From an uncultured Spirochaetaceae bacterium (GTDB lineage: Bacteria; Spirochaetota; Spirochaetia; Treponematales; Treponemataceae), in assembly GCA_902789325.1 (NCBI GenBank), contig CADANN010000001.1, positions 38,024 through 102,023 on the forward strand: a stretch of 64,000 bases of DNA. The letters run 5' to 3'. A program made the translations under genes and the position numbers. The notes beneath the pieces are model-generated. The model had not been told where the DNA came from. It saw nothing but the letters and a program-made list of their open reading frames with translations, and ran no database searches. Shown piece after piece: positions 15,101 to 61,826 of this stretch (within the stretch, counting starts at the first letter, position 1; the number at the start of each line of letters is the position of its first letter).

Positions 15101-15156
15101 AAAACAAAATCCTTATAACTTTTTCCAATATTTGTTGTGTCTGTAAAATTAAACAT
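12103..15156 (-). CDS. M16C (PreP/insulinase-like) zinc metallopeptidase
   Basis: 1017 aa with the inverted zinc motif HIMEHSVLCGS (HxxEH). Confidence 0.9.
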   Translation of the reverse strand: MFNFTDTTNIGKSYKDFVLLSIDELKDYKAKGVYLRHKITGLEVYHIIKDDKENLFAYAFRTLDKTSRGVAHIMEHSVLCGSEKYPLKEPFITLASTSLNTFLNAFTYPDKTVYPGASVVRADYFNMMDVYGDAVFFPKLDRETFTQEGHRVEMDENGKLSIQGVVYNEMKGNYSSFQPIAFSDLIGAMFPNSYPAFDSGGDPLHIPELTYQDFLDFHQKFYSPDNCLLFLYGDIPTDQQLDFIDERFISRLVKKYDCREGGVISNIDTTSKTPLIKDEVRELQKLEFLKESTEIKTYAPETGSTGSLVTLNWYAGKADMEKYFLSEALCGNDSSPIARALKDSKLGDDVQFQSFGQFKEEFYTAGLWGVQKGDEEKVFDLVEKTLNDIYENGVSQEDIDSAVMGIDFALREVNRYWGPFSIQLMEKALKGWCNGDSCASQLSPITSFEKVKKALREDPDYTKKLIKKYFLDPDAVKVRFISEPSDKYFKEREEAEAALIEKLGKDIDREQLKKELDELHTYQQHIETAEETACIPTTKISELDRKIDIPHTSLEFVKGADNSEIPLFVSKEDTNGIFYIDVLFPFDNLAPEYLQHVPFLADVITNLGWNGKGWDRCTAESSCIMGDIWGRTLCGSIPDAPECLAEAAKYKDYNFCGRNWIGLICKALSEKAEEALNMLAEIITTMDFDDHKHLETLIGELKAEKKNSLISNGRDYAQKRARSMWSPTLALNEIMWGVSQLHTVSNYKKHDAKNLLKTFAYMYSECIKAGGIIHITADEESLKKIRPLLQNFAQKTGITKLLPIHNYTMDELKPYIWQADDAASAELQFIKVSGQTGYAATITPSSEYLTKESAAENIFTAWISSHTLWDKIRTTGGAYGANCWVDSIEKSVVMTTYRDPTPFKSIKVYLDSLKELCSTPIPKEEVEKTIVASYGNAIVPACPKDRGARSFEGMLYANPQDFKQKRVDNILEVTEDDVEKAADRLYEASVKKCSKAVFSNKSDKSEEFAGKIIKLPL

Positions 15157-16345: not shown

Positions 16346-16372
16346 ATAATGATTTTATCATTTAGAAGTGAT

Positions 16373-18139: not shown

Positions 18140-18141
18140 AA

Positions 18142-19869
18142 TTATCCTCTCTGTTCAAGCCATACTTCGCGATAATAACCGTCGTGGCTGATCAATTCTT
18201 CGTGGCTTCCCTTATCCACAATCTTTCCATCCTGAATAACAAGAATTACATCGCAGTTTTCAAATGATGAAACTCTGTGACTGATGATAAAAGCTGTATG
18301 GCCTTCACTGCGGCTCTTAATTGACTTGCGGATTTTATATTCCGTGTCGTTATCTACAGCACTGGTTGTATCATCAAGAATCATAACTTTAGGATCTGCA
18401 AGGAAAAGGCGCGCAAGGGCAATTCGCTGTTTCTGACCACCACTAAGTCCAACTCCGCGCTCACCTACAATTGTGTCGTAGCCGTCTGTCAGGTCGCCGA
18501 TAAATTCCTTTACTCTGGCCAGTTCAGCCGCAGCTTCTACTTCTTCAAACGAAGCATCTTGTTTTGCAAAGGCAATATTTCCTTCAACTGTATCGCTGAA
18601 CAAAAAGGCTTCCTGCATTGTTATCCCCACATTACGGCGCAGTTCCTGCAGGTTGTAGTCTTTTACATTTTTACCGTCAATCAAAACTTCACCAGAATCT
18701 GCATCGTAGTAGCGGCACATAAGATTTGCAATTGTAGACTTACCGCTTCCGGTAGGTCCAAGAATGCCGACCGTAGTTCCCGGCTCAATTACAAAGCTCA
18801 TATTTCTGATTACAGGAGTTTCGTTATAGGCAAAGGAAACATTACGGAACTCTACTCTACCTTGAATTGAAGTTACATCAGCTGATTCTGATTCTGGATT
18901 CTTTATCTTACTTTCAGCCTTCTGCAATTCAAAAAGTCTGTCTGCAGAAGCCCCGAAATTCTGAGTATTATCAACGAGCATACCAAACATATTGATTGGC
19001 TGAATGAAGGCCCACATCAAACCGTTGAACGTAACCAGCTGACCAATTGTCATTTCTTCCTGAATTACAAGATATCCACCAAACAAAATCAAAATAACAG
19101 GAAGTACCTGGCACAATGCATCGATCCATGGCAAAAACTTTACGCGCATATCAGCATTTGCAACAGAAACATCGCGGTAGCTTTCATTTTCTTTATCGAA
19201 TCTTTCTGTTTCATAACCTTCGCGAACAAAGGCTTTTACAACACGGTTTCCTTCGATATTTTCGCCAACACGGGTATTCAAAACTGCAAACTGGTCACGA
19301 ACCTTCATATGAGCCGGACGAATATGAATCTTAAACTTATGGACAAGAAAAAGAACCGGCGGCGCAATAACCATAAACGCAAGAGTCAATTTCCAGTTGA
19401 TTGAAGCCAGTGTAATGATTGAAAAAATATATATAAGACTGTTCTCAAGAATCTGATACACTACCCAGGCTACAAAGTGACGAACCTTGTCCAGATCAGA
19501 AGTAAGAAGAGTCATAACGTTTCCGCTTGGCGCATTATCATACCAGCTGAAATCAAGCTTTTGAATATGAGCATACAAATCTTCCCTCATCTTCAAAATT
19601 ACATTCTGTGAACAATGCTCAAAAATTACCTGATAGCTATAGCGGAAGATAGATTTACCAACTACAACACAAAGCATGATTGTAATGAGTTTGAATAAAA
19701 GCTCATGCTGCCCGCCCTTAATTACTTTGTCTACGATGTTTCCGGTTACAATCGGATTCACCATATTCATAGCAGCTACACATACGCTTAGAAAAAGTCC
19801 TGCAGCCATTCCAAAACGATAACGGCGTACATAAGACCACACCCATGAAAAAGCAGTCTTTTCTTTCAT
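18142..19869 (-). CDS. ABC exporter, fused permease/ATPase (heterodimer partner A)
   Basis: Walker A GPTGSGKST, signature LSGGQKQR and Walker B MILDDTTS. The start MKEKTAF follows a GAGGA RBS. Confidence 0.92.
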   Translation of the reverse strand: MKEKTAFSWVWSYVRRYRFGMAAGLFLSVCVAAMNMVNPIVTGNIVDKVIKGGQHELLFKLITIMLCVVVGKSIFRYSYQVIFEHCSQNVILKMREDLYAHIQKLDFSWYDNAPSGNVMTLLTSDLDKVRHFVAWVVYQILENSLIYIFSIITLASINWKLTLAFMVIAPPVLFLVHKFKIHIRPAHMKVRDQFAVLNTRVGENIEGNRVVKAFVREGYETERFDKENESYRDVSVANADMRVKFLPWIDALCQVLPVILILFGGYLVIQEEMTIGQLVTFNGLMWAFIQPINMFGMLVDNTQNFGASADRLFELQKAESKIKNPESESADVTSIQGRVEFRNVSFAYNETPVIRNMSFVIEPGTTVGILGPTGSGKSTIANLMCRYYDADSGEVLIDGKNVKDYNLQELRRNVGITMQEAFLFSDTVEGNIAFAKQDASFEEVEAAAELARVKEFIGDLTDGYDTIVGERGVGLSGGQKQRIALARLFLADPKVMILDDTTSAVDNDTEYKIRKSIKSRSEGHTAFIISHRVSSFENCDVILVIQDGKIVDKGSHEELISHDGYYREVWLEQRG

Positions 19870-19994
19870 CAATAATCCTCGAAATGTAAAAAAATTGAAC
19901 ATTTCTTTATAAGTAATTTTACTCTAGCATTACTTTTATTTCCGTGGTATAAGAAAAGGTGTAAATTATTGTACATTTCTCTACGGGAGATATT

Positions 19995-20867
19995 ATGGAC
20001 GATCTTTTTGAAGAAAGCGACAGCCTCAATGCACCTTTTCAGGCCTTTTCGGGCGACTGGAAATATGTAAAACCTCACTGGCATTATTTTACAGAAATGG
20101 TATATCTGGTTAGCGGTGTTCTATATGCTGAAGTAGACGGAAAGCAATTTACCATGAATCCGGGCGATATGATTATCTTCCATCCGAAACAGATTCATGC
20201 CTTTCTGGATTATCCTGTAAAGGAAGAATATCCCGACAAGCCATTTTTCTATGTAATCAAATTTGATGACATGATTCTCTCAAATACCACTCCGGGTTCT
20301 CCAAAGCTGCCAAAGCTTCTCGACAAAGCTAATTCTGATGCCGGAGCAACAAATCTTCTTACGGCACGCGATTTGCGTTTTAATCCTGTAAAAATGTATT
20401 TTGAATACTGTATGTGGGAAACAAAAAACCGTCAGTTCGGCTACGATATTAAGGTTGCTTCAATGATAAGCCTTATTATTACCGAGATTATAAGAATCTG
20501 GCTGCGTCACGGCTTTCAGTTTTCTACAAAAACAACTTTTGATCAGTTTTCTACAAAGGATTTTTCTGTACTCGAATATATTGATAAACACTCTTCAGAA
20601 AATATCAGCGTAGAAGATCTGGCTTCGAAATGCGGAATGTGCTATTCAAATTTCGCAAAGCAGTTTAAAGCTCAGTTTGGAAAAACCTGTAAGGAATACA
20701 TTGAATTCATAAGAATCTGTAAAGCAGACACTCTCCTGCTCTACACCGACAAAACCCTCGACTACATCAGCCAGGAAACAGGCTTTACAGATGCCAGTCA
20801 CTTTATCCGCACTTACAAAAAAGTCAGAGGAATAACTCCTAAACAAAGAAGAAATTCACAGATATAA
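19995..20867 (+). CDS. AraC-family transcriptional regulator with N-terminal cupin
   Basis: Cupin-like N-terminal half and a C-terminal double HTH (ISQETGFTDASHFIRTYKK). Confidence 0.9.
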   Translation: MDDLFEESDSLNAPFQAFSGDWKYVKPHWHYFTEMVYLVSGVLYAEVDGKQFTMNPGDMIIFHPKQIHAFLDYPVKEEYPDKPFFYVIKFDDMILSNTTPGSPKLPKLLDKANSDAGATNLLTARDLRFNPVKMYFEYCMWETKNRQFGYDIKVASMISLIITEIIRIWLRHGFQFSTKTTFDQFSTKDFSVLEYIDKHSSENISVEDLASKCGMCYSNFAKQFKAQFGKTCKEYIEFIRICKADTLLLYTDKTLDYISQETGFTDASHFIRTYKKVRGITPKQRRNSQI

Positions 20868-20873
20868 AAAAAA

Positions 20874-20907
20874 GGCAGGCATCCAACAAGAGAAATGAAT
20901 GCCTGCC
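20874..20907. terminator. bidirectional terminator between convergent genes
   Basis: GGCAGGCAT...ATGCCTGCC, flanked by an A-run on one side and a weak T-run on the other. Confidence 0.65.
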
Positions 20908-20939
20908 TGAAATCAGTTTATAAAATGGAGTGTTTTTAT

Positions 20940-22643
20940 TTACTGTTTCTTATAGATTTCGTTTGTAAGAGCTACAATCTTGTCTACATTAAGATTCTTA
21001 CAGCTTGAAACATATTCGTTCCAATCCTTATTGATATCTTTCTGGCCAGTTACAAACTTGAGTGTCCATGCATTGATGTTATCAATAAGTGGAACTGCCC
21101 AGAGGTTCAACTGTTCACGTTCATCTTCTGTTGGTTTAGCTTTTGGATCTACAGTTGCTACAGTCTTATATTTTCCATAGCGAGCATACAAATCCTGTAC
21201 TTCTGGAGTGAATGCATCTGTTGATTCTTCTGTTGAGTGACCATAGAAGTAGTTACCACCAGCATAACCCCACTTAAGACGGATATCAATAAAGTCATCT
21301 GGACCAGGAAGTCCAAGACCACCACACTTAAAGCCGTCCTTAAGCTTCTTAATCTTTGCACCGTTAGAAGCAGTACCCCATTCCCATGTCTTTCCTTCTG
21401 GACCCCACTTACAAAGTGAGTAAGCTTCCTTAGAATAGAACATCCAGTCAACAAAGCGCATAAGTTTAATGAATCCTTCTTTTCCGAGTTCATCAAGAGC
21501 CTTCTGAGAAATCATAACACCACATTCAAGACGTGAAGTTTCTGCAAGGTTCTTGTTTGTTCCAGATGGATAAGCAGTTACGTAGCATTTTGCGCTGTCG
21601 CCGAGAATCTTCTGAACACCAGCAATATCGTTTGCCATCTGTGAGCGGTTTGTAGACATAATTACAGTCTTTCCGCTGTAGAACTTGTTGTGAGCAACAT
21701 CATCAGCCTGTGTAAATGTTTCTGGATCAAGAAGACCATCTTTTACAAAGCTGTTAGCAACTGTAACAAGTTTCTTAAAATCATCACTAATAGAAGATGA
21801 GTAGAATTCTTTCTTGTTCCAGTCATATTTAATACCACCGTTTGAACCTTCAATAGCCCATCCAGAAAGAACATTGTAAGAAGCACCCATCAACTTAAGA
21901 AGGTTACCACCCTGTCCTTTTCCAGATTCACCACACCAGAGGTCAGACCAGATGTAGTCAGAGTCTTTGCAAAGGCCATTTGCAACCATGTATTTCTTTA
22001 CACCTACGAGAACATCGTGAAGGCTTTCCCATGTCCAGTCTTTTTCGAGTTCGCGGATATTGTAGCCAGCTGCTTCGAAAATGTCTTCACGAACCATGAT
22101 TGTATAGTCCTGAAGAGCAGCCTGATGCATACCTGGGAGACGATAGAATTTTCCATCGCTCTGGCGGATTGTATCAAGATCTGGATCCATGTTGTATTTC
22201 TTTACGAAAGCAGAGAAGTTAGGCATGTACTGAACATAATCAGATACAGGAACTACACCGCCTCCAGAAACATACTGGTTTTCATCATAAATCTTTGGAA
22301 TGATGTATGTTGGATTTCCAGAGTTGATTGCAAGGTTTACCTTCTGACCATAATCTCCAGAGTCATAAGATGTGATGTCGAGATGAACATTTGTTACATC
22401 CTCGATATCCTTGAATACACCTTCAGTCTTCCATGTATCCTGCATTGCATACCATGAAGCATCACTGAAAGAAATTGAATAAGTTACTTTTTCATCAGAG
22501 TGGAAAGTCTTTTCCTCTCCGAATGTGTAACCTTTAGCCTCAGCAGATGCAGCTCCGCCTTTTGCTGCAGTTTTGCCAGAACAAGCCGTAAACAAAGCAG
22601 CAGCACATGTGATTGCAACAGCAATAGTCGCAATTTTTTTCAT
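20940..22643 (-). CDS. extracellular solute-binding lipoprotein of a carbohydrate ABC importer
   Basis: 567 aa, lipobox LFTAC, large family-1 (LplA-like) SBP. Confidence 0.85.
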   Translation of the reverse strand: MKKIATIAVAITCAAALFTACSGKTAAKGGAASAEAKGYTFGEEKTFHSDEKVTYSISFSDASWYAMQDTWKTEGVFKDIEDVTNVHLDITSYDSGDYGQKVNLAINSGNPTYIIPKIYDENQYVSGGGVVPVSDYVQYMPNFSAFVKKYNMDPDLDTIRQSDGKFYRLPGMHQAALQDYTIMVREDIFEAAGYNIRELEKDWTWESLHDVLVGVKKYMVANGLCKDSDYIWSDLWCGESGKGQGGNLLKLMGASYNVLSGWAIEGSNGGIKYDWNKKEFYSSSISDDFKKLVTVANSFVKDGLLDPETFTQADDVAHNKFYSGKTVIMSTNRSQMANDIAGVQKILGDSAKCYVTAYPSGTNKNLAETSRLECGVMISQKALDELGKEGFIKLMRFVDWMFYSKEAYSLCKWGPEGKTWEWGTASNGAKIKKLKDGFKCGGLGLPGPDDFIDIRLKWGYAGGNYFYGHSTEESTDAFTPEVQDLYARYGKYKTVATVDPKAKPTEDEREQLNLWAVPLIDNINAWTLKFVTGQKDINKDWNEYVSSCKNLNVDKIVALTNEIYKKQ

Positions 22644-35919: not shown

Positions 35920-38900
35920 CTATGCAGTGCACTTACGGAATGCAGCAAGAACTGCATCTTCATGATTTGCAATTGTTTTTTCCTGCTCAACGATTTCCTT
36001 CATGATACGAAGGTAGTCATTAGGGATGATTTTCTTGAATTTTGTTTTCATATTATCCCAATCAGCAAGAATTGCTTTTGCACGCTCACTGCCAGTTTCT
36101 TTTGCATGCTGTTCGATGAGTGCGTAGAGATGATTTTCATCAGTTGTGCCACTAAGGGTTGTTGTCTCATCATCAAGAGCATACATTTTTACCAGTTCGT
36201 GATTCATGCGTTTATAAAGATCATGATTTTCATCAAGAACATAGGCTACACCACCGCTCATACCGGCACAGAGATTCTTTCCGGTTCCTCCAAGAATTAC
36301 AGCTGTACCACCAGTCATATATTCAAGACCATGATCACCACAACCTTCGGCTACAACAGTTGCACCAGAGTTTCGAACACAGAAACGTTCACCGGCTACA
36401 CCATTAATAAATGCAGTTCCGCTGGTTGCTCCAAACAATGCTACGTTACCTACGATTATATTTCCGTCAGCTTTACCTTCGAACTCTGCAGGCTTTTTGA
36501 TTACAAGCTTTCCGCCACTCAAACCTTTACCGAATGCGTCGTTTGCATCTCCAGTAAGGCGCAATGTAAGTCCCTTTGGAATAAAAGCACCAAAGCTCTG
36601 GCCTGCACCACCTTTGAAGTTTACGCAGTAAGTGTCATCAGAAAGTGTATTTCCGAATTTTTTCTGAATTTCAGAGCCGAGTATTGTACCAACAGTTCGG
36701 TCTGTAGACTGGATGTCGATTAAATCACCAGTTTTCTTATTTTCAAAATCCGGAACAAGTTTTGTAAGATCAATGCGTTTTTCAAGCTCAAAGTCAAAAA
36801 GTGAACGGTCAGCTTTCCAATCGCCGCCAGCTTCTGCATTAGCAAGAACACGGCTCATATCAACCAGCCCTGCTCTCTTGAAGCCCTGCTTATCCTTAAG
36901 CTTGAGCAAATCAGTTCTACCACAGAGCTCTTCTACAGTACGAACTCCAAGTTTTGCCATAATCTCACGCATTTCCTGAGCAATGAACTTCATAAAATTG
37001 ATTACGTATTCAGGCTTTCCAGGGAATTTTGCGCGAAGCTTTTCGTTCTGAGTTGCAACACCAAATGGACAGGTATCCAGCTGACATACACGCATCATAG
37101 AACAGCCCATAGCAATAAGAGGAGCAGTAGCAAAACCGAATTCTTCTGCACCAAGAAGAGCTGCAATTACGACATCACGACCACTCATAAGCTTACCATC
37201 AGTTTCAATTACAACACGACCACGAAGTCCATTCTGAATCAGAGTCTGGTGAGTTTCAGCAAGACCAAGCTCCCAAGGTAAACCAGCATGATGGATTGAA
37301 CTGATTGGAGCCGCACCTGTACCACCGTCGTGACCAGAAATCAAAATTACCTGAGCACCAGCTTTTGCAACACCAGCGGCAATTGTTCCAACGCCGGCTT
37401 CACTTACAAGCTTTACACTGATACGTGCTGCACGGTTTGCATTTTTCAAATCGTAAATCAGCTGAGCCAAATCTTCGATAGAATAGATATCATGATGAGG
37501 TGGAGGCGAAATCAAAGCAACACCAGGGGTTGCATATCTTGTTTTTGCAATCCAAGGATAAACCTTTTTACCAGGCAAATGTCCACCTTCACCAGGCTTA
37601 GCCCCCTGTGCCATCTTAATCTGGATTTCGCGGGCACTCAAAAGATATTCTTCTGTAACACCAAAACGTCCAGAAGCAACCTGTTTAATTGCAGAGTTAT
37701 ATTCTGTTCCAAGACGCTCCGGTTTTTCTCCACCTTCTCCACTGTTGCTTTTTCCGTGAATGGCATTCATTGCAGCGGCCATACATTTATGAGCCTCTTC
37801 ACTGATTGAACCATAACTCATGGCACCAGTCTTAAAGCGTTTTACAATCTCGTCTACACTTTCAACTTCATCAATTGAAATACCTTCACCGGCTTTTTCA
37901 AAATCAAAATCGAGCATTGCACGAAGAGTATGTGGATGAGAGTTATCGTCAACTAACGCAGTGTATTCCTTAAAGCGAGTGTAATCTCCATTGCGGGTTG
38001 CCTGCTGCAAAGCCACAATAGTCTCTGGATTATAAAGATGGCTTTCTGCCTGAGGGCCACGACGGAATTTATGCTTACCGAAAGAATCCAGATGCTGGTT
38101 TACAGTAAGGCCAGCAGGATCAAAGCCCTGATCGTGATGATAGCGAACGTCTTCTTCTATTTCTTTAAGACCTACCCCTCCAACACGGCTGACTGTATTT
38201 GTAAAATATTTTTCAACTACGTCACCGGCAATTCCAACTGCTTCAAAAATCTGAGCACTCTGGTAAGACTGAATTGTTGAGATACCCATTTTTGCAGCAA
38301 TCTTTACAATACCATTTATAATTGCCTTATTATAATCATCAATTGCTGTGTGATAATCTTTATCAAGAATTTTCTGATCAATAAGTTCTGCAATTGCTTC
38401 GTGTGCAAGATAAGGGTTGATTGCACGGGCACCATAACCAAGACACATTGCAGCCTGATGAACATCTCGAACTTCTGCAGTCTCAAGAATAATAGAAATT
38501 GCAGTACGCTTTTTTGTTCGGATTAAATACTGTTCAACAGCACTGGTTGCAAGGATAGCAGGAATTGCAGCGTGAGTTTCATCTACACCGCGGTCACTAA
38601 GAATGATGATGTTGTATCCATCGACATAAGCAGCATCGATTTGTGCAAAGAGTTTTTCAAGTGCAGTTTTCAACAGACTGTCACCCCGAACTTGTTTCGG
38701 GGTCTCATTTGTAGATGCTGAAACAAGTTCAGCATGACTATCTTTATTCAAATCAAATAAAATTGAAATTGTTTTTGTCTTAAGTCCCGGCTGATTCAAA
38801 GTACTGATTTTCATCAAATCTGTACCAGTCAAAATCGGATTATTAATTTCAAGAACACGACAGTTCTTTGCCTCCGGCTGCAAAAGGTTACCATCCTTTC

Positions 38901-40506
38901 CAACATAAACAGTAGTGTCAGTAACAACCTTCTCACGAAGACTATCAATAGGAGGGTTTGTAACCTGAGCAAAAAGCTGCTTGAAGTAAGAGAAAAGCGA
39001 CGGATGTTTTTCACTCATTACAGCAAGCGGAGTATCAACACCCATACTTGCAGTAGGTTCTACACCGTTACGAGCCATAGGCAGAATCATTTCATTTACA
39101 TCTTCATAATTCCAGCCGAAAGCACGGTACATGATATTTCTTTCATCCTGAGTAAATACAGGAATCTTTTTGTTTGGAATCTTCAGATCAGCAAGGTGAA
39201 TAAGATTCATATCAAGCCATTCACCATAAGGATAAAGTGAAGCATATTCTTTTTTACATTCTTCATCAGAAATGATTTTTTTCTGAACAGTATCTACAAG
39301 AAGGATTCTTCCCGGCTGCAAACGTGATTTAATTTTTATATTTTCTTCTGGAATATCAAGAACACCAACTTCACTGCTCAAAATAAGCATATTGTCTTTT
39401 GTGATGTAATAGCGGCTTGGACGAAGACCATTACGATCAAGAGTTGCACCAAGCAAATCACCATCACTAAACAGAATTGCAGCAGGACCATCCCAGCTTT
39501 CCATCATAGTTGCCCAGTAATGATAAAAATCTTTTTTATTCTGAGGCATATTATCATCGTGTTTCCAAGGTTCAGGAATACACATCATTACAGCAAGAGG
39601 AAGAGGAACGCCGTTCATAACCAGGAACTCGAGAGTATTATCGAGCATTGCAGAGTCAGAACCAGTAGTATCTACTGCAGGAAGGATTTTCTGCATCTGA
39701 GTTTTATCAAGTTTGGTAGAACTAACAGTTTCTTCTCGAGCAAGCATACGGTCAACGTTTCCACGGATTGTATTGATTTCTCCGTTATGCGCAATAAAGC
39801 GGTTTGGATGAGCACGCTGCCAGCTAGGCTGAGTATTTGTAGAAAAGCGGGAATGAACAAGAGCAAGAGCCGATTCATAATCAGCAGACTGTAAATCGCT
39901 GTAAAAAGTGCGGAGCTCATGAACAAGGAACATACCTTTGTAAACAATTGTACGGCTGCTCAAAGAACAAACATATGTTTTATGTTCGCTGTCCTGTTTT
40001 TCAAACTCGCGTCTGGCAATATAAAGTCTGCGGTCGAAATCAATTCCCTTCTCACATTCAGAAGGACGCGCAATAAAGGCCTGCCAGATATTAGGCATAC
40101 AGTCACGCGCCTTTTTACCAAGCACTTCAGCATTTACAGGAACTTTACGCCAGCCAAGGAACTTCAATCCTTCTGCAGAACAGCATTTTTCAAAACGAGC
40201 TTTTTCAGAAGCACAAACAGTATCGTCTCCAGGAAAGAAAAACTGACCAATACCGTAATCGCGTTCACCAAGCGAACCAATCAAATCCTGCACAGCCTGC
40301 TTATAAAACTTGTGACAAATCTGAACAAGAATACCTACACCATCTCCAGTTTCACCGCTGGCATCTTTACCTGCACGGTGTTCAAGTTTTTCAACGATAC
40401 TCAAGGCATTATCAACAATTTTGTGCGTTTTAGAACCGTCAATATTTACTACCGCACCAATACCGCAAGCATCATGTTCAAATGCTGGTTCATACAATGT
40501 TTTCAT
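35920..40506 (-). CDS. gltB: glutamate synthase large subunit
   Basis: 1528 aa. N-terminal Ntn Cys (FEHDACGIG), FMN/3Fe-4S central domains and a C-terminal GXGXG beta-helix domain. Confidence 0.97.
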   Translation of the reverse strand: MKTLYEPAFEHDACGIGAVVNIDGSKTHKIVDNALSIVEKLEHRAGKDASGETGDGVGILVQICHKFYKQAVQDLIGSLGERDYGIGQFFFPGDDTVCASEKARFEKCCSAEGLKFLGWRKVPVNAEVLGKKARDCMPNIWQAFIARPSECEKGIDFDRRLYIARREFEKQDSEHKTYVCSLSSRTIVYKGMFLVHELRTFYSDLQSADYESALALVHSRFSTNTQPSWQRAHPNRFIAHNGEINTIRGNVDRMLAREETVSSTKLDKTQMQKILPAVDTTGSDSAMLDNTLEFLVMNGVPLPLAVMMCIPEPWKHDDNMPQNKKDFYHYWATMMESWDGPAAILFSDGDLLGATLDRNGLRPSRYYITKDNMLILSSEVGVLDIPEENIKIKSRLQPGRILLVDTVQKKIISDEECKKEYASLYPYGEWLDMNLIHLADLKIPNKKIPVFTQDERNIMYRAFGWNYEDVNEMILPMARNGVEPTASMGVDTPLAVMSEKHPSLFSYFKQLFAQVTNPPIDSLREKVVTDTTVYVGKDGNLLQPEAKNCRVLEINNPILTGTDLMKISTLNQPGLKTKTISILFDLNKDSHAELVSASTNETPKQVRGDSLLKTALEKLFAQIDAAYVDGYNIIILSDRGVDETHAAIPAILATSAVEQYLIRTKKRTAISIILETAEVRDVHQAAMCLGYGARAINPYLAHEAIAELIDQKILDKDYHTAIDDYNKAIINGIVKIAAKMGISTIQSYQSAQIFEAVGIAGDVVEKYFTNTVSRVGGVGLKEIEEDVRYHHDQGFDPAGLTVNQHLDSFGKHKFRRGPQAESHLYNPETIVALQQATRNGDYTRFKEYTALVDDNSHPHTLRAMLDFDFEKAGEGISIDEVESVDEIVKRFKTGAMSYGSISEEAHKCMAAAMNAIHGKSNSGEGGEKPERLGTEYNSAIKQVASGRFGVTEEYLLSAREIQIKMAQGAKPGEGGHLPGKKVYPWIAKTRYATPGVALISPPPHHDIYSIEDLAQLIYDLKNANRAARISVKLVSEAGVGTIAAGVAKAGAQVILISGHDGGTGAAPISSIHHAGLPWELGLAETHQTLIQNGLRGRVVIETDGKLMSGRDVVIAALLGAEEFGFATAPLIAMGCSMMRVCQLDTCPFGVATQNEKLRAKFPGKPEYVINFMKFIAQEMREIMAKLGVRTVEELCGRTDLLKLKDKQGFKRAGLVDMSRVLANAEAGGDWKADRSLFDFELEKRIDLTKLVPDFENKKTGDLIDIQSTDRTVGTILGSEIQKKFGNTLSDDTYCVNFKGGAGQSFGAFIPKGLTLRLTGDANDAFGKGLSGGKLVIKKPAEFEGKADGNIIVGNVALFGATSGTAFINGVAGERFCVRNSGATVVAEGCGDHGLEYMTGGTAVILGGTGKNLCAGMSGGVAYVLDENHDLYKRMNHELVKMYALDDETTTLSGTTDENHLYALIEQHAKETGSERAKAILADWDNMKTKFKKIIPNDYLRIMKEIVEQEKTIANHEDAVLAAFRKCTA
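38680..38738. repeat. 59-nt double-hairpin repeat element inside gltB (copy A, complete)
   Basis: GTCA-CCCCGAA-CTTGT-TTCGGGG-TCTCATTTGTAG-ATGCTGAA-ACAAG-TTCAGCAT-GAC. It is translated in frame as SHAELVSASTNETPKQVRGD. Confidence 0.8.
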
Positions 40507-41356: not shown

Positions 41357-42910
41357 TTATCCATTCAATATTTTTGCTGCCTCGTTTTCCCCATTTGATG
41401 TTGAATAAAAATAAGGTGTTTCAGCATCAAATTCGCCGGCACAGGTATCAACCATTTTGAAGGATATCGGAGGATACAACATTCCGCTGTTACTTTTTTC
41501 AGCCTTTGTAATATTTTCCAGCTTGCACAGGAACCACTCGTCAATTTTTGTAATTTCGTGAATCTGTTCAACTGAATAAAGTCCGCGTTTAAGGGCCTGA
41601 TAAATTGCAAATATTCTCTGATCGGTGCACTGTCCTACCCGTTCGCGTATTTTCTCATCACCTTCTTTTTCAAAGGCAGGAAGATTCAAATCTTTTACAC
41701 CAACTTCAAGTCCTCGGGCAGCCTTAAGAATTGCTTCTTCAAAGTTCTGGCCAATTGCCATAACTTCACCAGTTGCCTTCATCTGTGTACCAAGCTTACG
41801 TGCAGCATAAACAAATTTATCGAACGGGAACTTTGGCATTTTTACAACTACATAGTCGAGAACAGGTTCAAAGCAGGCTTTTGTCTTCTTTGTTACAAAG
41901 TTTGGAATTTCATCCAGAGTAAAGCCAACTGCTATGAGGGCTGCAACCTTTGCGATTGGATAGCCGGTTGCTTTTGAAGCGAGCGCTGAAGAACGCGAAA
42001 CACGAGGGTTTACCTCAATTACCGCATATTCAAAGCTGTCTGGATTAAGTGCAAACTGACAGTTACAGCCACCTTCAATTTCGAGGGCGCTGATGATATT
42101 GAGTGCGGCACTTCGCAGCATCTGATATTCTTTATCTGCAAGAGTCACAGTTGGTGCAATTACGATTGAGTCACCAGTATGAACACCAACAGGATCAAAG
42201 TTTTCCATAGAACAGACAGTAATTACGTTAGCATTGCTGTCCCGCATTACTTCAAACTCAACTTCTTTCCATCCGCTGATACATTTTTCTACAAGTATCT
42301 GATGAATTGGCGAACGATGAAGTCCGTTATGAGCAATTTCGTCCAGTTCGCGGTCGTTATTTACAATACCACCACCTGTTCCACCAAGGGTAAAGGCCGG
42401 ACGGATAATTGCAGGAAAGCCGATTTCGTTATGAACAAAATCAGCAGCATCTTCGTAAGTAGTTACAACTTTTGAAGGAATACAAGGCTCTCCTATTGCT
42501 TCCATTGTATCTTTGAACATCTGGCGGTCTTCTGCCTTGTCGATTGTTTCAGGGCGTGCACCAAGCAGCTGAACATTATGGCTCGCAAGAAAGCCGGATT
42601 TTGCAAGCTCCATACTGAGGGTCAATCCCGTCTGACCGCCAAGTGTTGAAAGCAGGCTGTCTGGTTTTTCTTTTTCGATGATTCTTTCAAGAGTTCGCAG
42701 AGTAAGCGGTTCCATGTAAATCTCATCTGCCATTTCGTGGTCAGTCATTAAAGTTGCCGGATTTGAGTTTACAAGACAAACTTCAAGTCCAAGAGATTTC
42801 AGAGCCTTACATGCCTGATTTCCGGCATAGTCAAATTCCGCTGCCTGTCCAATTACAATCGGACCGGAACCAATAATCATTACTTTGTGAATATTTTTAT
42901 TGAGAGGCAC
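41357..42910 (-). CDS. carB: carbamoyl-phosphate synthase large subunit, N-terminal half only
   Basis: 517 aa. It begins [25 protein letters not shown] and ends at ...[20 protein letters not shown], the junction between the two homologous CarB halves. A stop follows, and then a convergent GNAT gene. Confidence 0.9.
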
Positions 42911-42911
42911 T

Positions 42912-44042
42912 TTATTTTTCCTCCATCATTTTTAAGAATCTGTCGAATAAAAAGTTTGTATCGTGCGGGCCACCGCAAGCTTCCGGATGGAACTGTACGC
43001 TGAAGGCTGGAATATCTGTATAATCTACACCTTCAACTGTTCCGTCGTTTACATTAAAGAAACTCATTTTTGCAAAGGACGGCAAAGAGGTGTTTTCTAC
43101 TGCATAACCATGATTCTGACTTGTAATGTAAACACGATTTGTTGCTGTATCTTTTACCGGATGATTTCCACCGCGGTGTCCGTATTTTAATTTGCTGGTT
43201 TTTGCACCACGTGCAAGAGCGAGCATCTGATGTCCAAGACAGATTCCAAAGATTGGAATTTTTCCGTACTCGCACAATTTTCTAATTTCTTCTATAACAC
43301 CAACATTGTCTGCAGGGTCTCCAGGGCCGTTACTGAGCATAACTCCATCGGGATTTTGTTTGATTACTTGTTCTGCAGTGGAATTATATGGAACGACTGT
43401 AACACGACAGCCACGTTTTTCGAGCTCGCGCTGAATATTTAATTTTGCGCCAAAGTCATAAAGGATGACGTGGGGGGCGTTGCGGGGGCTCTCCCCTGCA
43501 GAAGGGGGTGTGGCGAAGACCGCTTGCGGGCTGAGCCCAGGGGGAAGGCTTTCCCCCTCACTATGCTGGACACTTTCAACAGCTTTTTCTATTTTATAAT
43601 TTTTGATTTCTTCAAGCAGTTTGTCGGAAACTTCCTGGCATTCTCCGCTAACAATCATGCCGTTCATTACGCCAGATTCGCGAAGTCGTTTTGTAAGGGC
43701 GCGGGTATCAATTCCACAGATTCCAACAACCCCCTGCTCTTTCAAAAAATCATTCAACGAACCAGCACAGCGGAAATTAGAAGGCGCCTCACACAGCTCA
43801 CGAACTATATAACCGCGCACCCAGGATTTTTTACTTTCAAAATCCTCTGGCATTACACCATAGTTTCCAATTAATGGAAAAGTCTGTGTAACTATCTGCC
43901 CGTAATAACTTGGATCTGTAAGGGTTTCAATGTAGCCGGTCATTCCTGTAGTAAAAACTGTTTCACCGATTGTAGTGCCTACCGCTCCAATTGAAGTTCC
44001 TTCAAAAACCGTCCCGTCTGCGAGAATTAACCAAGCCTTCAT
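42912..44042 (-). CDS. carA: carbamoyl-phosphate synthase small (glutaminase) subunit
   Basis: 376 aa with the triad motif GICLGHQ...HPE. Contains a GC-rich linker segment (see findings). Confidence 0.95.
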
Positions 44043-56527: not shown

Positions 56528-56572
56528 GTCATTCCGAACTTGTTTCGGAATCTAAATCAAGTTCAGCATGAC
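56528..56572. repeat. double-hairpin repeat element, copy C (second hairpin half-deleted)
   Basis: GTC-ATTCCGAA-CTTGT-TTCGGAAT-CTAAATC-AAGTTCAGCATGAC. It overlaps the last 3 codons and the stop of the minus-strand gene. Confidence 0.75.
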
Positions 56573-57876
56573 TCAACCACACGGATTGCAAAAGTGTCAT
56601 CGGCAATGCAAACTTCGCCGCGTGCAACAATTTTGCCTGAGCGGATAATCTGTGCAAACTCTCCGGCCCTCTGTTTCAAAATAACATAAGAGCCCTGATG
56701 CAGGCCTGCAACTTCTTCTTTTGAAAGGTAAGCGCTTCCAAGCTGAATCGAAATATAATCTTTTTCATCGTAGATGATTTCATTCAACTGAGGATTTTCA
56801 GCAATTCTCATTCCAAAAAGTTCATCAATTGCAACAGTTTTACCAGTGTGAATTACACGGTTCTCATAAACAAGATTTAGTCCTTCATTTTCCTTTTTAT
56901 CCAGAATTAAAATCAAGCCCGGTTCAAGAGAAACATTTTCCGGACGGAATCTTCCAAGTTCAATAAAAACATTGTCCGGCTGCTGATGACTTTTTATATT
57001 TGAAAGATTCTGAAATCTTATTTTTCCACCAACAGTTCCTGCATTTCCGCCGTCACCAAAAAAGCCGCCCATAACCATTTCTTCAAGAAGAGTGTCACTA
57101 AACTGAAGATTTATCCAGCCTTCCTGACCGGCAACATTTCCCTTAAGAGCAAGCAGCAGCATCATGCAATTGTCTTCCTGCCGAGTCGTATTGGAATTTC
57201 CTGCAGCCACAGCTTTTCCCAGCTCAAACTTTTCGTCAGAAACCTTCCCGTCTGTGCGCCGACAGATTTCTTCCTTAAGCATTCCTGTTACAGTTTTTAC
57301 AAAATAATTCTTAAAAACATCAATATCAAATTCAGTAATGGCCTCGTATTTCGTGCAATCCTGTTTGAGCAGTGCCTTTGCAATCAGAGCATCTGCTTCA
57401 ATAGTAAAACCTGCATTCGAATAATCAAAATCATAGAAAAAACATTTCTGCGGAATCGAATGTAAAAACTCGGAATTAATCATCTGATCCACAAGTGACA
57501 CAGAAAAATCACAGCGCTCATTCATCATGGCAGTAAATTCATGATTTATAAGACGGCAGATATCCTCGCCCAGAATCCAAAGCTCCCGCTGCATATAACG
57601 CGGATAACGGTCTGGCTGGCGGAAGTTATACTCCTTAATTTTCTTTCCGCTCACATCCTGACTCACAGGCAATTCGCCGTTCATAATCGACTCAACTTCA
57701 ACTCCAAATACTTCGGCAAGTTTAGGAAGTACTGTCACATCCGGGCAACCTTCACCACGCTCCCACTTTGAAACAGCTTTGTCGGTTACATTACATTGTT
57801 CTGCAAGTTCCTTTTGAGTAAGTCCCTTTCGATTTCGTAATTCATAAATCAAAAATCCAGTTTTTTCTGCATTCAT
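56563..57876 (-). CDS. XRE-type HTH fused to FliM-like middle domain and FliN/SpoA-like C-terminal domain
   Basis: - HTH: LRNRKGLTQKELAEQCNVTDKAVSKWERGE.
- FliM-like segment: IKEYNFRQPDRYPRYMQRELWILGEDICRLINHEFTAMM...
- FliN-like end: GSYVILKQRAGEFAQIIRSGKIVARGEVCIADDTFAIRVVE.
The start follows an AAGGAG RBS. Confidence 0.75.
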   Translation of the reverse strand: MNAEKTGFLIYELRNRKGLTQKELAEQCNVTDKAVSKWERGEGCPDVTVLPKLAEVFGVEVESIMNGELPVSQDVSGKKIKEYNFRQPDRYPRYMQRELWILGEDICRLINHEFTAMMNERCDFSVSLVDQMINSEFLHSIPQKCFFYDFDYSNAGFTIEADALIAKALLKQDCTKYEAITEFDIDVFKNYFVKTVTGMLKEEICRRTDGKVSDEKFELGKAVAAGNSNTTRQEDNCMMLLLALKGNVAGQEGWINLQFSDTLLEEMVMGGFFGDGGNAGTVGGKIRFQNLSNIKSHQQPDNVFIELGRFRPENVSLEPGLILILDKKENEGLNLVYENRVIHTGKTVAIDELFGMRIAENPQLNEIIYDEKDYISIQLGSAYLSKEEVAGLHQGSYVILKQRAGEFAQIIRSGKIVARGEVCIADDTFAIRVVESC

Positions 57877-57962
57877 AATAATTCTCCTTAGCAGTTTCCC
57901 GCTTACATTCAAAATCGTAACACGGAAGCTGCAGTCTGTAACCCGACGTGTAGTTTAACAGA

Positions 57963-58456: not shown

Positions 58457-60247
58457 ATGTGTGGTTTTGTAGGATGCTTTGATTTGAACTCAGGTAGCGC
58501 GCCTATTGCAGAAGGCTTGAAAGAAGAACTTCGTGCGCAGGTTCTGGAGATGTCTAAGAAAATTCGTCACCGTGGTCCAGACTGGAGCGGTGTTTATACC
58601 GGTAATAATGCTATTTTAAGCCATGAACGTCTTTCAATCGTAGACCCACTTTCAGGAAAACAGCCTTTGGTCAGCGATGATGAAAAAATCATTCTTGCCG
58701 CAAACGGTGAAATCTACAATCACAAGGAAATCCGAGCAAAGTTTGATGGTTCATATAAGTTCAGAACTGGAAGTGACTGCGAAGTTATTATTCCTCTTTA
58801 TAAAAAATACCGCAAATCTGGCGATTTCACAAAGATGATTGAAGAGCTTTCGGGTATCTTCGCATTCGCACTTTATGACAGCGAACACGACACATATCTG
58901 ATTGCCCGCGACGAAATCGGTGTTATTCCACTATATCAGGGCTGGGACAAAGCAGGCCGCTATTATGTTGCAAGCGAACTCAAAGCTCTCGAAGGCGACT
59001 GCCAGACAATTGAAGAATTCCCTAATGGAAGTTATTTATACAGCGGCCGTCATGCTGAACTTGTTTCAGCATCAACTGATGAGACCCCGAAACCAATCCG
59101 CTGGTATCACCGCAACTGGGAATCATATGAAAGCGTAAAATCAGCCCCAAAAGCAACCGACGAAAAAGGCGAAGTAATCAACCCAAGCGTAATCGAAAAA
59201 GTACGTAACGGACTCGAAACTGCAGTAAAAGCCCAGTTGATGTCAGACGTTCCTTACGGCGTACTTCTTTCCGGCGGTCTCGACTCATCAATCATCGCAG
59301 CAATCACACAAAAATACAGCAAAAAACGTATTGAAACAGACAGCAAGGAAGCAGCCTGGTGGCCACAGCTCCACTCATTCGCAGTTGGACTTGAAGGTTC
59401 TCCAGACCTTATCGCTGCTCAAAAGGCCGCAGACTATATCGGAACCGTTCACCATGAAGTACACTTTACAATTCAGGAAGCACTCGATGCTCTCCCTGAT
59501 GTAATTTACCACATCGAAACTTACGACATCACAACAGTTCGTGCCTCTACCCCTATGTATCTGCTTGCGCGTGTAATCAAATCTATGGGAATCAAGATGG
59601 TTCTTTCGGGCGAAGGAAGTGACGAGCTCTTTGGTGGTTACCTTTACTTCCACAAGGCTCCAAATGCACAGGAGTTCCATGAAGAACTTGTACGTAAAAT
59701 GAGTAAACTTCATCTTTACGACTGTCTCCGTGCAAACAAATCTCTTATGGCATGGGGTGTTGAAGGCCGCGTTCCATTCCTTGATAAAGACTTTATCGAC
59801 ATCGCAATGGGCCTCAACCCAAGTGATAAAATGAACATCAAATTACCAGATGGTAAACAGAGAATGGAAAAATGGATTCTCCGTAAAGCCTTTGAAGATC
59901 TTCTTCCAGAAAGCATTGCATGGCGCCAGAAGGAACAGTTCTCAGATGGTGTAGGCTATAACTGGATTGATACCCTCAAAAAGATGACAGAAGAAAAGGT
60001 AAGCGACGCAGAATTTGCACGCCGCGAAAACCGCTTCCCTGTAAATCCTCCAAAAACAAAAGAGGAATATTACTACCGCGAAATCTACAGCCGCCTCTTC
60101 CCAAGCGACAGTGCAGCACGTTGTGTTCCACACGAAGCCGGAGTTGCATGTTCAACAGCAAAAGCCCTCGAATGGGATGCAGCATGGAAGACTATGGATG
60201 AACCGAGCGGACGCGCAATTGCAGGAGTTCACGATAATGCCTACTAA
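58457..60247 (+). CDS. asnB: asparagine synthase (glutamine-hydrolysing)
   Basis: N-terminal MCGFVG (Ntn Cys) and PP-loop SDVPYGVLLSGGLDSS. 596 aa. Confidence 0.96.
   Translation: MCGFVGCFDLNSGSAPIAEGLKEELRAQVLEMSKKIRHRGPDWSGVYTGNNAILSHERLSIVDPLSGKQPLVSDDEKIILAANGEIYNHKEIRAKFDGSYKFRTGSDCEVIIPLYKKYRKSGDFTKMIEELSGIFAFALYDSEHDTYLIARDEIGVIPLYQGWDKAGRYYVASELKALEGDCQTIEEFPNGSYLYSGRHAELVSASTDETPKPIRWYHRNWESYESVKSAPKATDEKGEVINPSVIEKVRNGLETAVKAQLMSDVPYGVLLSGGLDSSIIAAITQKYSKKRIETDSKEAAWWPQLHSFAVGLEGSPDLIAAQKAADYIGTVHHEVHFTIQEALDALPDVIYHIETYDITTVRASTPMYLLARVIKSMGIKMVLSGEGSDELFGGYLYFHKAPNAQEFHEELVRKMSKLHLYDCLRANKSLMAWGVEGRVPFLDKDFIDIAMGLNPSDKMNIKLPDGKQRMEKWILRKAFEDLLPESIAWRQKEQFSDGVGYNWIDTLKKMTEEKVSDAEFARRENRFPVNPPKTKEEYYYREIYSRLFPSDSAARCVPHEAGVACSTAKALEWDAAWKTMDEPSGRAIAGVHDNAY
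59049..59093. repeat. double-hairpin repeat element inside asnB (copy B, 3'-truncated)
   Basis: GTC-ATGCTGAA-CTTGT-TTCAGCAT-CAACTGATGAG-ACCCCGAA-AC. It is translated in frame as RHAELVSASTDETPK. Confidence 0.8.
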
Positions 60248-61826
60248 TGATTCTGCAAAATCAAAAGGAACAATCGTAGTTCTTGGTTCAGGCCCAATCC
60301 GAATCGGTCAGGGAATTGAGTTCGACTACGCGAGCGTTCAGTGTGTACGCGCCCTCAAAAAACTTGGGTATGAAGTTGCAATCATCAACAACAACCCGGA
60401 AACTGTAAGTACCGACTTTGATACTGCAGACCGTCTTTATTTTGAACCACTCACTCCACCAGATGTTATGAACGTAATCAACGATGAAAAACCTCTTGGT
60501 GTAGTAGTTGCATTTGGCGGTGGAACAGCAATTAAACTTGCAAAATATCTGGACAGTCAGGGAGTACGTATTCTCGGAACTTCTGCAGATGCAATCGACC
60601 TTGCCGAAGACCGTGAACGTTTTGAAGAACTCTGCGACCGCCTCAACATTAAGCGCCCTCGCGGACTTACAGTGTTTACAGAAGTAGAAGCCCTCGAATC
60701 TGCTGCAAAAATCACCTACCCTGTTCTCATGCGACCAAGCTACGTACTTGGCGGTCAGAACATGATTGTTGCCCGCAACAATGCAGATGTAAAAGAATAC
60801 ATGAAAATCATTCTGCGTCAGGGAATTGAAAATCCGGTTCTTATCGACAAATATATGGAAGGAACTGAGCTCGAAGTAGACTGTATCTGCGACGGCGAAA
60901 ATGTTTTGATTCCTGGAATTATGGAACACGTTGAGCGCACTGGTATTCACTCAGGTGACTCAATTGCAGTTTATCCAGGTCAGTTCACTCCAGAAATTGA
61001 AGAAAAAATCGTTCGTCAGTCTACAGACCTTGCACTTGCACTTGGAACAAAAGGTCTTGTAAATATTCAGTATCTTATTTACGACAATGATCTTTATATT
61101 ATCGAAGCAAATCCACGTTCAAGCCGTACCGTTCCTTACCTTAGTAAGGTTTCTGGTGTACCAATGATTGACCTTGCAACCCGCGCCATGCTCGGAGAAA
61201 AAGTTCGTGAACTTGGTTATGGAACAGGTCTTTACCGTAAACCAGATTATTGTGCCGTAAAAGTTCCAGTATTCAGTTTTGAAAAACTGATGGATGTGGA
61301 TACACATCTTGGCCCGGAAATGAAATCAACTGGTGAAGTTCTTGGCATTGCCCCTACCCGCGAAGAAGCACTCTTTAAAGGAATGGTTGCTGCAGGATGG
61401 AAGATGATTAAAGAAGGCGGCATTCTGTTCTCAGTTCGTGAATCTGACCTTCCGGAACTTCCAGCCCTTGCAAAAAAGTTTTATGATCTTGGCTTTACTC
61501 TTTATGCAACAAGCGGAAATGCCTCAACAATTGAACGCAGTGGTATGCCCGTAACCCACGTTGCAAAAGTTCACGAAAATTACAATGACAATGTAATGAC
61601 TCTTCTGGAAAGCGGAAAAGTTGTTTACGTAGTTTCTACATCTGCAAAAGGACGCGATCCTGTAGCCGAAAGCGTAAAGCTTCGCCGTCTTGCTGTAGAA
61701 CGAGATATTGATTGTCTTACAGCCTTGGACACTGCTAACGCACTCGCAGACTGTCTTGCAAGTCCATACACATTAGATAACGTAAGCGTAGTTGATATCA
61801 ATCACGATTTAAGAATTCATAACTAA
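60237..61826 (+). CDS. carB: carbamoyl-phosphate synthase large subunit, C-terminal half (second ATP-grasp + MGS-like allosteric domain)
   Basis: It starts MPTNDSAKSKGTIVVLGSGPIRIGQGIEFDYASVQ, matching the second CarB repeat, and ends with an MGS-like domain (ILFSVRESD...LYATSGNA). The ATG at 60237 overlaps the asnB stop by 11 nt. The upstream part of the ORF-track ORF overlaps asnB and is discounted. Confidence 0.9.
   Translation: MPTNDSAKSKGTIVVLGSGPIRIGQGIEFDYASVQCVRALKKLGYEVAIINNNPETVSTDFDTADRLYFEPLTPPDVMNVINDEKPLGVVVAFGGGTAIKLAKYLDSQGVRILGTSADAIDLAEDRERFEELCDRLNIKRPRGLTVFTEVEALESAAKITYPVLMRPSYVLGGQNMIVARNNADVKEYMKIILRQGIENPVLIDKYMEGTELEVDCICDGENVLIPGIMEHVERTGIHSGDSIAVYPGQFTPEIEEKIVRQSTDLALALGTKGLVNIQYLIYDNDLYIIEANPRSSRTVPYLSKVSGVPMIDLATRAMLGEKVRELGYGTGLYRKPDYCAVKVPVFSFEKLMDVDTHLGPEMKSTGEVLGIAPTREEALFKGMVAAGWKMIKEGGILFSVRESDLPELPALAKKFYDLGFTLYATSGNASTIERSGMPVTHVAKVHENYNDNVMTLLESGKVVYVVSTSAKGRDPVAESVKLRRLAVERDIDCLTALDTANALADCLASPYTLDNVSVVDINHDLRIHN

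Follow-up and report, generated by a model that had tools for sequence, protein, structure and literature searches.

An in-frame dimer of a CGTC-tagged palindromic repeat as a probable passenger in an asparagine synthetase of a Treponemataceae bacterium

The gene for asparagine synthetase B (asnB) of an uncultured Spirochaetaceae bacterium carries an in-frame insert of 45 nt which, with a probability of about 85%, we consider to be the decayed dimer of a repetitive extragenic palindromic (REP) element of the CGTC-2 type, related to the hairpin motif of the Ssn nucleases; the peptide encoded by the insert would be a tolerated passenger and no functional module. The gene is part of a stretch of 64,000 nt (contig CADANN010000001.1 of assembly GCA_902789325.1, positions 38,024 to 102,023), which is called the window in the following and is numbered from its first letter; designations such as L003 denote other loci compared with it. 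Conservation of the element is found at the level of the DNA hairpin, the stems of which covary, and not at the level of the codons. Judging by the names of the nearest AsnB proteins in a protein search (asparagine synthase B of Treponema bryantii or Treponema sp.), the DNA probably comes from a Treponema of the rumen that belongs to the T. bryantii group.

The insert in asnB and its alleles

The host gene (58457..60247, plus strand) is an open reading frame (ORF) of 596 aa that codes for a glutamine-hydrolysing asparagine synthetase. Its insert begins with a complete forward hairpin unit (59048..59075, plus strand) that matches the unit of at least 120 genome loci and encodes (R)HAELVSAS. The unit consists of the tag CGTC (59048-59051), the first stem arm ATGCTGAA (59052-59059), the loop CTTGT (59060-59064), the second stem arm TTCAGCAT (59065-59072) and the tail CAA; folded as single-stranded DNA it gives an 8-bp hairpin (-6.7 kcal/mol, z = -2.6). 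The spacer CTGATG (59076..59081, plus strand), delimited by alignment with the full-length allele of locus L003 and with a copy in gltB, leads to AGACCCCGAAAC (59082..59093, plus strand), half of an inverted second unit that comprises its tail, its 5' stem and its first loop bases. The complete layout of 59048-59093 is CGTC-ATGCTGAA-CTTGT-TTCAGCAT-CAA-CTGATG-AGACCCCGAAAC, translated as RHAELVSASTDETPK. The initial annotation, made from the letters of the window, had described a 3'-truncated repeat in frame at 59049-59093. The letters it quoted match the window exactly, the ORF translation and the allele comparison support the in-frame position, and the inverted unit indeed ends after ACCCCGAAAC, with 30 nt missing in comparison to L003.

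Alignment of the product with E. coli AsnB (PDB 1CT9, E-value 9.6e-227) places the insert at the turn S182-I187, which is replaced by it; the E. coli sequence given in the initial annotation proved right in this alignment. We take this turn of 1CT9 to lie a few residues ahead of the point where the glutaminase domain gives way to the synthetase domain, and the insert probably sits in a surface loop of AsnB. At this loop the window protein is 10-12 residues longer than the Treponema alleles that have no insert (586 and 584 aa); the initial annotation had given about 12-15 extra residues in comparison to E. coli AsnB. A 42-nt pattern of the element occurs twice in the window at up to 3 mismatches, whereas 0.00 occurrences were expected from 100 shuffles.

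A full-length dimer of 59 nt is present at 38680..38738 (minus strand) in gltB, the gene for the glutamate synthase large subunit (35920..40506, minus strand; ORF of 1528 aa, with homologues named glutamate synthase subunit alpha). The coding strand reads GTCATGCTGAACTTGTTTCAGCATCT, the spacer ACAAATG and then AGACCCCGAAACAAGTTCGGGGTGAC, and encodes SHAELVSASTNETPKQVRGD. Two 8-bp hairpins are formed by the inverted units with their 7-nt spacer (-16.2 kcal/mol, z = -5.5). The gltB element, read as SHAELVSASTNETPKQVRGDS, matches the asnB copy in orientation and frame, and the two ORF translations bear out that both copies are read in one frame; the common orientation says little, because the reverse complement of the dimer is almost the dimer again. 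In a search of spirochaete and other GltB orthologues, which gave fragments of at most 77% identity, the residues of the insert were absent. A third copy, beyond the two that had been noticed initially, was found at 56528-56572. Its forward unit GTCATTCCGAACTTGTTTCGGAATCTA (56528..56554, plus strand) lies between convergent genes, at a place that is likewise occupied in L003 and L004. It is followed by a partial inverted unit (56558..56572, minus strand; GTCATGCTGAACTTG). The minus-strand ORF 56563-57912, an HTH/FliN-like gene, takes its last codon and its TGA stop from the GCTGA of this unit; the product ends with ...VVESC*, and L003 and L004 are arranged alike. Stop codons supplied by REPs of the GTAG type and REP copies overlapping the ends of ORFs have been reported (Di Nocera 2013, BMC Genomics 14:522, PMC3733652).

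The history of the asnB copy can be read from its alleles. Locus L003 encodes an AsnB of 608 aa with a complete dimer, SGKQSHAELVSASKDETPKQVRGDGVYLKP, and at the insert its DNA differs from the window in two changes only, a 6-nt difference at the 5' junction and the 30 nt that the window lacks. The gap is flanked by AAAC repeats: L003 continues with AAACAAGTTCGGGGTGACGGTGTTTATTTAAAACCA, and the window reads AAACCA. Most simply, the window copy would be a full dimer that lost 30 nt by a secondary deletion between the AAAC repeats. The truncated allele recurs in a second assembly (P0002, 98% identity).

Variation at this loop was assessed in the 120 closest AsnB cluster representatives, all of which are at least 90% identical. 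The loop is short and insert-free (SKDEKP, SKDSTQKP, SGKEKP) in 68 of them, contains peptides of CGTC-2 units in 18, a 'PST..SG' insert in 23 and other long inserts in 11. The CGTC-2 units occur as the full dimer, as partial duplications, in the truncated form of the window, in reverse-then-forward order (SGKETLKQVQGDSCHAELVSASP) or as a single reverse unit (SGKETLKQVRGDGKP). Proteins without the nucleotide repeat were also without the peptide, so that the finding by which the insertion claim was to be refuted, the peptide in orthologues that lack the repeat, did not appear. With the loop left aside, the window protein shares 99.2% identity with the insert-free P0006 and 97.9% with P0003, which has the full dimer. 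Since 68 of the 120 relatives do without it, P0006 among them, the insert is dispensable, and the loop is a hot spot. The DNA of asnB is a mosaic between relatives with and without the insert, and its nucleotide differences switch between L001 and L003 in blocks of 100-300 nt, which indicates that homologous recombination at this locus is probably frequent among rumen Treponema strains.

Two of the 34 inserts that are not of the CGTC-2 type were checked in DNA (L007 and L008), and both are palindromic repeats. The PST..SG allele of L007, the one of its class examined in this way, contains a different hairpin, CCTGAGCTTGTCGAAGG, which is repeated in its own locus and in other phyla. This sister family, (G)TC-CCTGAGCTTGTCGAAGG-G, was located at L007 10592-10608 and 7898-7914 and in L049, L054, L070, L090, L103 and L104; it is widespread across phyla, and in the AsnB loop of L007 it is read in a different frame and gives a PSTSSGT-type peptide. 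The insert of L008, the one examined from the class of other inserts, contains GC-rich palindromes; one of them recurs intergenically in these Treponema loci and also at 43541 of the window. One codon position holds, across strains, at least two distinct widespread hairpin families and other palindromic repeats. As an observation apart, the GC-rich palindrome GGGGAAGGCTTTCCCC was located at window 43541-43556, L001 7398, L003 3235, L007 7972, L008 14759 and L008 10592; it recurs intergenically in several related Treponema loci, and a near-identical copy belongs to the long in-frame insert of the AsnB loop in L008. It may be a second repeat family that is also able to become coding.

From the comparison of alleles we propose that a full dimer would have been inserted or recombined into the codons of the final beta-turn in the glutaminase domain of AsnB, either through the hairpins' own spreading mechanism or through recombination with an allele that already carried the dimer. 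It presumably survived because its length kept the frame, because the frame used was stop-free and hydrophilic and because the loop was permissive. In the window lineage, the 30-nt deletion at the AAAC microhomologies would then have cost the second unit its distal half.

A hairpin family associated with GIY-YIG nuclease genes

A unit of the family comprises GTC, A-NNNN-GAA, the loop CTTGT, TTC-NNNN-T and a tail that starts with C. The four N positions of the stem vary from unit to unit (TGCT, CCCC, TTCC) and complementarity is kept. A genome scan with the 25-nt pattern GTCANNNNGAACTTGTTTCNNNNTC, limited to one genome per species, yielded at least 162 units in at least 120 loci from many phyla, with hosts that include Sphingomonadales, Bacteroidota, Ignavibacteria, Melainabacteria, Patescibacteria, Nitrospirota, Elusimicrobia and Treponema. 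Of the 162 matches listed, 141 show perfect complementarity at the variable stem positions, whereas shuffled partners gave 31 on average and 43 at most. The tags of these listed units are CGTC (84), TGTC (61), GGTC (9) and AGTC (8). In the window, CGTC is found in the asnB unit, TGTC in the units at 38680 and 56528 and AGTC in the coding-strand unit of gltB. Most units lie outside long ORFs and many are arranged as inverted dimers or arrays; three loci are present in the 64-kb window. At least 66 forward-reverse dimers were counted over all loci, and the dimers of the window combine TGCT and CCCC stems.

The length of the dimer from GTC to GAC was 2 modulo 3 in 38 of 66 cases (59, 62, 68, 86 and 89 nt), for the most part among copies outside coding sequence; this skew could come from the structure of the family and from the non-independence of copies and not from a coding constraint. 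Long arrays with alternating orientation were seen at L156 26-1383 (20 units that surround and overlap the ends of a GIY-YIG match), at L047 1446-1677 (82-nt period) and at L126 146-900 and 7131-7770. No Rfam family matches the hairpin in the window or in six repeat-rich loci, the window as a whole gave no Rfam match at the gathering score, and a scan at E<=10 around the gltB copy (38620-38800) gave chance-level matches only. An apparent hammerhead ribozyme core (CTGATGAG...CGAAAC at 59076-59093) was dismissed as a chance resemblance, as its stem II would be a single base pair and no Rfam match was obtained window-wide. A literal search of the literature for the sequence returned unrelated primers only, and the element was identified via its tag and its associated gene.

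The tag leads to a superfamily of CGTC-tagged REPs, which has been divided into four families; their stems measure 8-9 bp and their loops 4-5 nt, the tail is near CCA, and dimers of the CGTC-2 family are mostly heterodimers (PMC3733652). According to the same source, these REPs are known from five phyla that include Spirochaetes, no dedicated transposase was known for them, and they are mainly extragenic and near the 3' ends of genes, with in-frame intragenic copies also on record. In its supplement, RHSELVSGS inside Sulfurovum SUN_0512 is a CGTC-2 element in the same frame as the asnB copy. The elements described here share with CGTC-2, as presented there, a (C/T)GTC tag that stays unpaired, the sizes of the stem (8 bp) and of the loop (5 nt), a short tail and inverted heterodimers, and further the mainly extragenic position with occasional in-frame copies and a Spirochaete host. 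An 8-bp stem, which in CGTC-2 usually starts with AT, together with a 5-nt loop is found in ATGCTGAA-CTTGT-TTCAGCAT and in ATTCCGAA-CTTGT-TTCGGAAT.

The associated gene was recovered independently. When the ORFs of the 120 loci were clustered all against all, a single family of small proteins turned up, shared by four unrelated loci, and Pfam identifies it as a GIY-YIG nuclease domain that stands alone; apart from it and from housekeeping families no recurrent gene was obtained in this clustering, which included no search specific for Y1 transposases. The GIY-YIG ORF is near hairpins in 4 of the 120 listed loci, and in three of these (L015, L045, L104) it directly abuts units of the family or loop variants. 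In a reverse test, 80 metagenome loci were selected solely for encoding the GIY-YIG protein. A forward GTC-hairpin lies within 100 nt upstream of the gene in 54 of 77 loci and a reverse hairpin within 100 nt downstream in 61 of 73, with hairpins on both sides in 46; the flanks contain 7.6 hairpins per kb, versus 0.41 per kb beyond 500 nt. The hairpin sequence at these loci depends on the lineage and the frame of tag and tail is constant, and metagenome loci nearest to a Sphingomonad query contain exactly the hairpin of the window, ATGCTGAA-CTTGT-TTCAGCAT. A cognate GIY-YIG gene (cd10448) flanked by the same hairpins is present in other genomes (L104, L045 and L129-L137, among others).

These genes correspond to Ssn, single-domain GIY-YIG proteins (cd10448) flanked by the hairpins known as NTS or SRM (Chenal 2025, Nat Commun 16:2388, PMC11893778). 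Ssn binds its hairpin only as single-stranded DNA and in one orientation and cuts a few nucleotides 5' of the tag; binding and cleavage were shown for the Neisseria and Wolbachia homologues, and neither RNA nor double-stranded DNA is acted upon. Among the bases, binding depends most critically on the C right after the palindrome, and all units of the window have this C. In that study 71% of ssn genes had a nearby motif and 42% were flanked on both sides, with which our independently recovered association agrees. The likeness extends to the insertion sequence (IS)-like layout, in which directional hairpins with a 5' CGTC tag stand on both sides of a gene of about 95 aa; we find this flanking reproduced for the GAACTTGTTTC hairpin in L104, L129-L137, L143, L159, L194 and L205. 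The unit of the window differs in stem and loop from the model motif of the published work, ATTCCCGC-N4-GCGGGAAT. The IS-like layout of ssn and its motifs was noted there and mobility was only hypothesised; Ssn might be the mobiliser of the hairpins studied here. A further difference is that in N. meningitidis only 2% of the NTS copies are intragenic.

Frames and sites of the coding copies

The initial annotation had offered two explanations for one peptide in two enzymes: that only one of the six frames is free of stops and tolerated, or that the peptide itself has been co-opted. The first did not hold in this form, as six-frame translation of the dimer reveals two stop-free frames, SHAELVSAS..ETPKQVRGD and VMLNLFQHL..RPRNKFGVT. 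By reading of the consensus unit, three frames out of six never meet a stop: H.ELVS.S and V..NLF..L, with ...KQV..D on the opposite strand. The use of frames among coding copies is nevertheless strongly skewed, and the equal representation of frames and orientations that was to refute the idea is not observed. In confirmed coding regions, forward units are read as H.ELVS.S at eight independent gene sites, with the published Sulfurovum case counted, and reverse units as ..KQV..D in every case. The hydrophobic frame is used once, by a single unit behind the GT2 domain of a GT2 glycosyltransferase (L116), in a C-terminal stretch that itself looks hydrophobic. The absence of stops is not the whole story; the tolerance of the protein counts too, and soluble proteins take hydrophilic frames. 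The pattern fits selection for frames that are stop-free, hydrophilic and compatible with a loop.

The in-frame copies lie mostly between protein domains. Dimers are found in a CarB-like protein of L001 (RHSELVSESTSTEMLKQVQHD, where relatives read KEGG) and in a TrpC-TrpF fusion (TrpCF) of L005 (RHAELVSASNKKIPKQVRND), in both cases between Pfam domains; the dimer in the CarB-like protein is absent from the orthologues in L003, L007 and the window. Single units lie between Pfam domains at a second GltB site in a horse-gut Treponema (L074) and in a PMT/TPR membrane protein (L063), just within the start of the F420-ligase-like domain of an asparagine-synthase fusion protein (L097), inside the N6_Mtase domain of the type I methylase HsdM (L088) and in an uncharacterised protein without Pfam support (L021). 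All copies in L001, L005, L074, L063, L088 and L097 are read in the H.ELVS.S or ..KQV..D frame. A peptide search with a concatenated 43-aa query gave 5 candidates. The window itself contains two half-size ORFs similar to the carbamoyl-phosphate-synthase large subunit (41357-42910, minus strand, and 60111-61826, plus strand) with an inverted-repeat similarity of 70-73%, and it is the L001 counterpart of the second one that bears the in-frame hairpin dimer.

Alternative explanations and wider meaning

Several observations weigh against our assignment of the asnB insert to a CGTC-2-type passenger dimer. The tails of the window units are CAA, CTA and CTC and not the published CCA consensus; in the cross-phylum units listed, TCCA was counted 46 times and TCT(C/A/G/T), the majority, 103 times. 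Elements with a CTN or CAA tail deviate from CGTC-2 as published (PMC3733652), and so does one stem of the window, ACCCCGAA, that begins with AC and not with AT. No ssn gene is present in the 64-kb window or in the Treponema loci read. The codons next to the insert vary together with it (YLYSG..KPI versus YFWSK..KPV in AsnB, and KEGG versus RPQK..DIPG in CarB). In the AsnB and CarB alleles compared, this difference beside the insert meant that neither a clean junction between empty and filled site nor a target-site duplication could be made out. An exchange of the loop as a homologous cassette is therefore plausible, and the scattered distribution would fit homologous allele exchange as well as repeated insertion. 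An AlphaFold model of the window AsnB had a mean predicted local distance difference test score (pLDDT) of 32.9 and gave no usable picture of surface exposure, because the alignment of 39 sequences, all above 90% identity, was too shallow.

The alternative that survives best, and which we still regard as improbable, is that the intragenic hairpins act as nucleic-acid elements. In an mRNA version, a hairpin at a domain boundary would pause ribosomes or set mRNA stability; in a version based on single-stranded DNA, an Ssn site would lower recombination or transformation across the gene and thereby lead to allelic divergence. Such a role would agree with in-frame copies that are mostly at or beside domain boundaries, with a hypervariable loop in a gene that is mosaic among strains, with the modulation of transformation by Ssn/NTS in Neisseria (PMC11893778) and with the view (PMC3733652) that REPs work as RNA elements downstream of genes. 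However, purifying selection on protein tolerance alone would place copies at domain boundaries, more than half of the close relatives (68/120) are insert-free and the window copy is short of half of its second hairpin. The inactivity of Ssn on RNA and double-stranded DNA and the lack of an ssn gene in the Treponema sequence examined also speak against it.

Co-option of HAELVSAS..ETPK as a module common to AsnB and GltB, for instance as an interaction or regulatory loop in nitrogen assimilation, is still less credible. It could account for one peptide in two glutamine-dependent enzymes of a single nitrogen-metabolism gene cluster and for the recurrence of the frame in the CarB-like and TrpCF proteins. 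But the apparent enrichment of nitrogen metabolism reflects a sampling bias, because the loci examined were chosen through AsnB, and the identical DNA unit is found in intergenic positions and in unrelated phyla. Among AsnB proteins that are more than 97% identical, some have the insert, others lack it, and in others again it is truncated or rearranged, so that the second of the two initial explanations is not supported either; unrelated peptides occupy the loop in other strains, and changes of the stem alter the peptide (HAELVSAS, HSELVSES, HPELVSGS) with the base pairing preserved.

Mobilisation as a classical GTAG-type REP/REPIN by a REP-associated tyrosine transposase (RAYT, of the Y1/HUH type) can practically be discarded, since the likeness in layout (an unpaired tetranucleotide with a hairpin, inverted dimers or doublets, arrays, a mostly extragenic position and a single nuclease gene flanked by its own repeats) is opposed by a (C/T)GTC and not a GTAG tag, by a hairpin-flanked gene with the GIY-YIG and not the HUH/Y1 fold and with no transposition demonstrated for Ssn, by the absence of any other recurrent hairpin-adjacent family from the 120-locus clustering (made without a Y1-specific search) and by the status of CGTC elements as a separate superfamily without RAYT (PMC3733652). 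Both the tag and the associated gene place the hairpins outside the GTAG REP/REPIN-RAYT group.

A passenger dimer of the CGTC-2 type has a counterpart in the Rickettsia palindromic elements (RPE), of which RPE-4 and RPE-6 have been equated with CGTC-4 and CGTC-1 (PMC3733652). There, too, palindromic repeats of one superfamily lie in frame in genes that likely code for functional proteins, and their behaviour is alike. Unlike the present elements, these RPE belong to CGTC-4 and CGTC-1 and not to CGTC-2, RPE-1 is a longer palindromic insertion, and the Rickettsia hosts are obligate intracellular, whereas the host here is a free-living gut anaerobe. Different REPs at about one site of two Xanthomonas recB genes are also on record in that source. 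The cases in the parts of it used here do not include the host (a rumen Treponema), the host genes (asnB, gltB, carB-like and trpCF) or a hot spot with multiple alleles in a single protein loop.

The present analysis reveals no new element type or mechanism, as the CGTC-2 family, its in-frame copies and the link to the nuclease have already been published. It extends the in-frame REP 'decoration' of housekeeping enzymes, best known in Rickettsia, to free-living gut spirochaetes and provides, for a single codon position, a set of natural alleles (empty, truncated form, single unit, full or reversed dimer, other repeat families) that could be used to study the gain, rearrangement and loss of Ssn-type hairpins and the tolerance of a loop. 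For annotation, H.ELVS.S and ..KQV..D peptides in proteins or small ORFs are to be taken as translated repeats. A more far-reaching idea, which we consider doubtful and put forward only tentatively, is that the inter-domain turn of AsnB and the linkers of GltB, the CarB-like protein and TrpCF might be recurrent landing pads for at least three to four unrelated types of palindromic repeats that may have invaded independently in rumen Treponema, with insertion, rearrangement and excision of Ssn-type hairpins actively generating in-frame length variation in core nitrogen-metabolism enzymes. If this were true, the loop would represent a natural and ongoing case of repeat-driven protein loop evolution, perhaps with targeting by a DNA feature of the site beyond selective filtering.

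Directly downstream of asnB in L006, positions 12262-21782 contain a run of small minus-strand ORFs of prophage-like appearance, with weak or faint Pfam matches to baseplate, wedge and sheath-initiator proteins, a CHAP match and an RVT_1 reverse transcriptase (14170-15309) that is possibly part of a diversity-generating retroelement.

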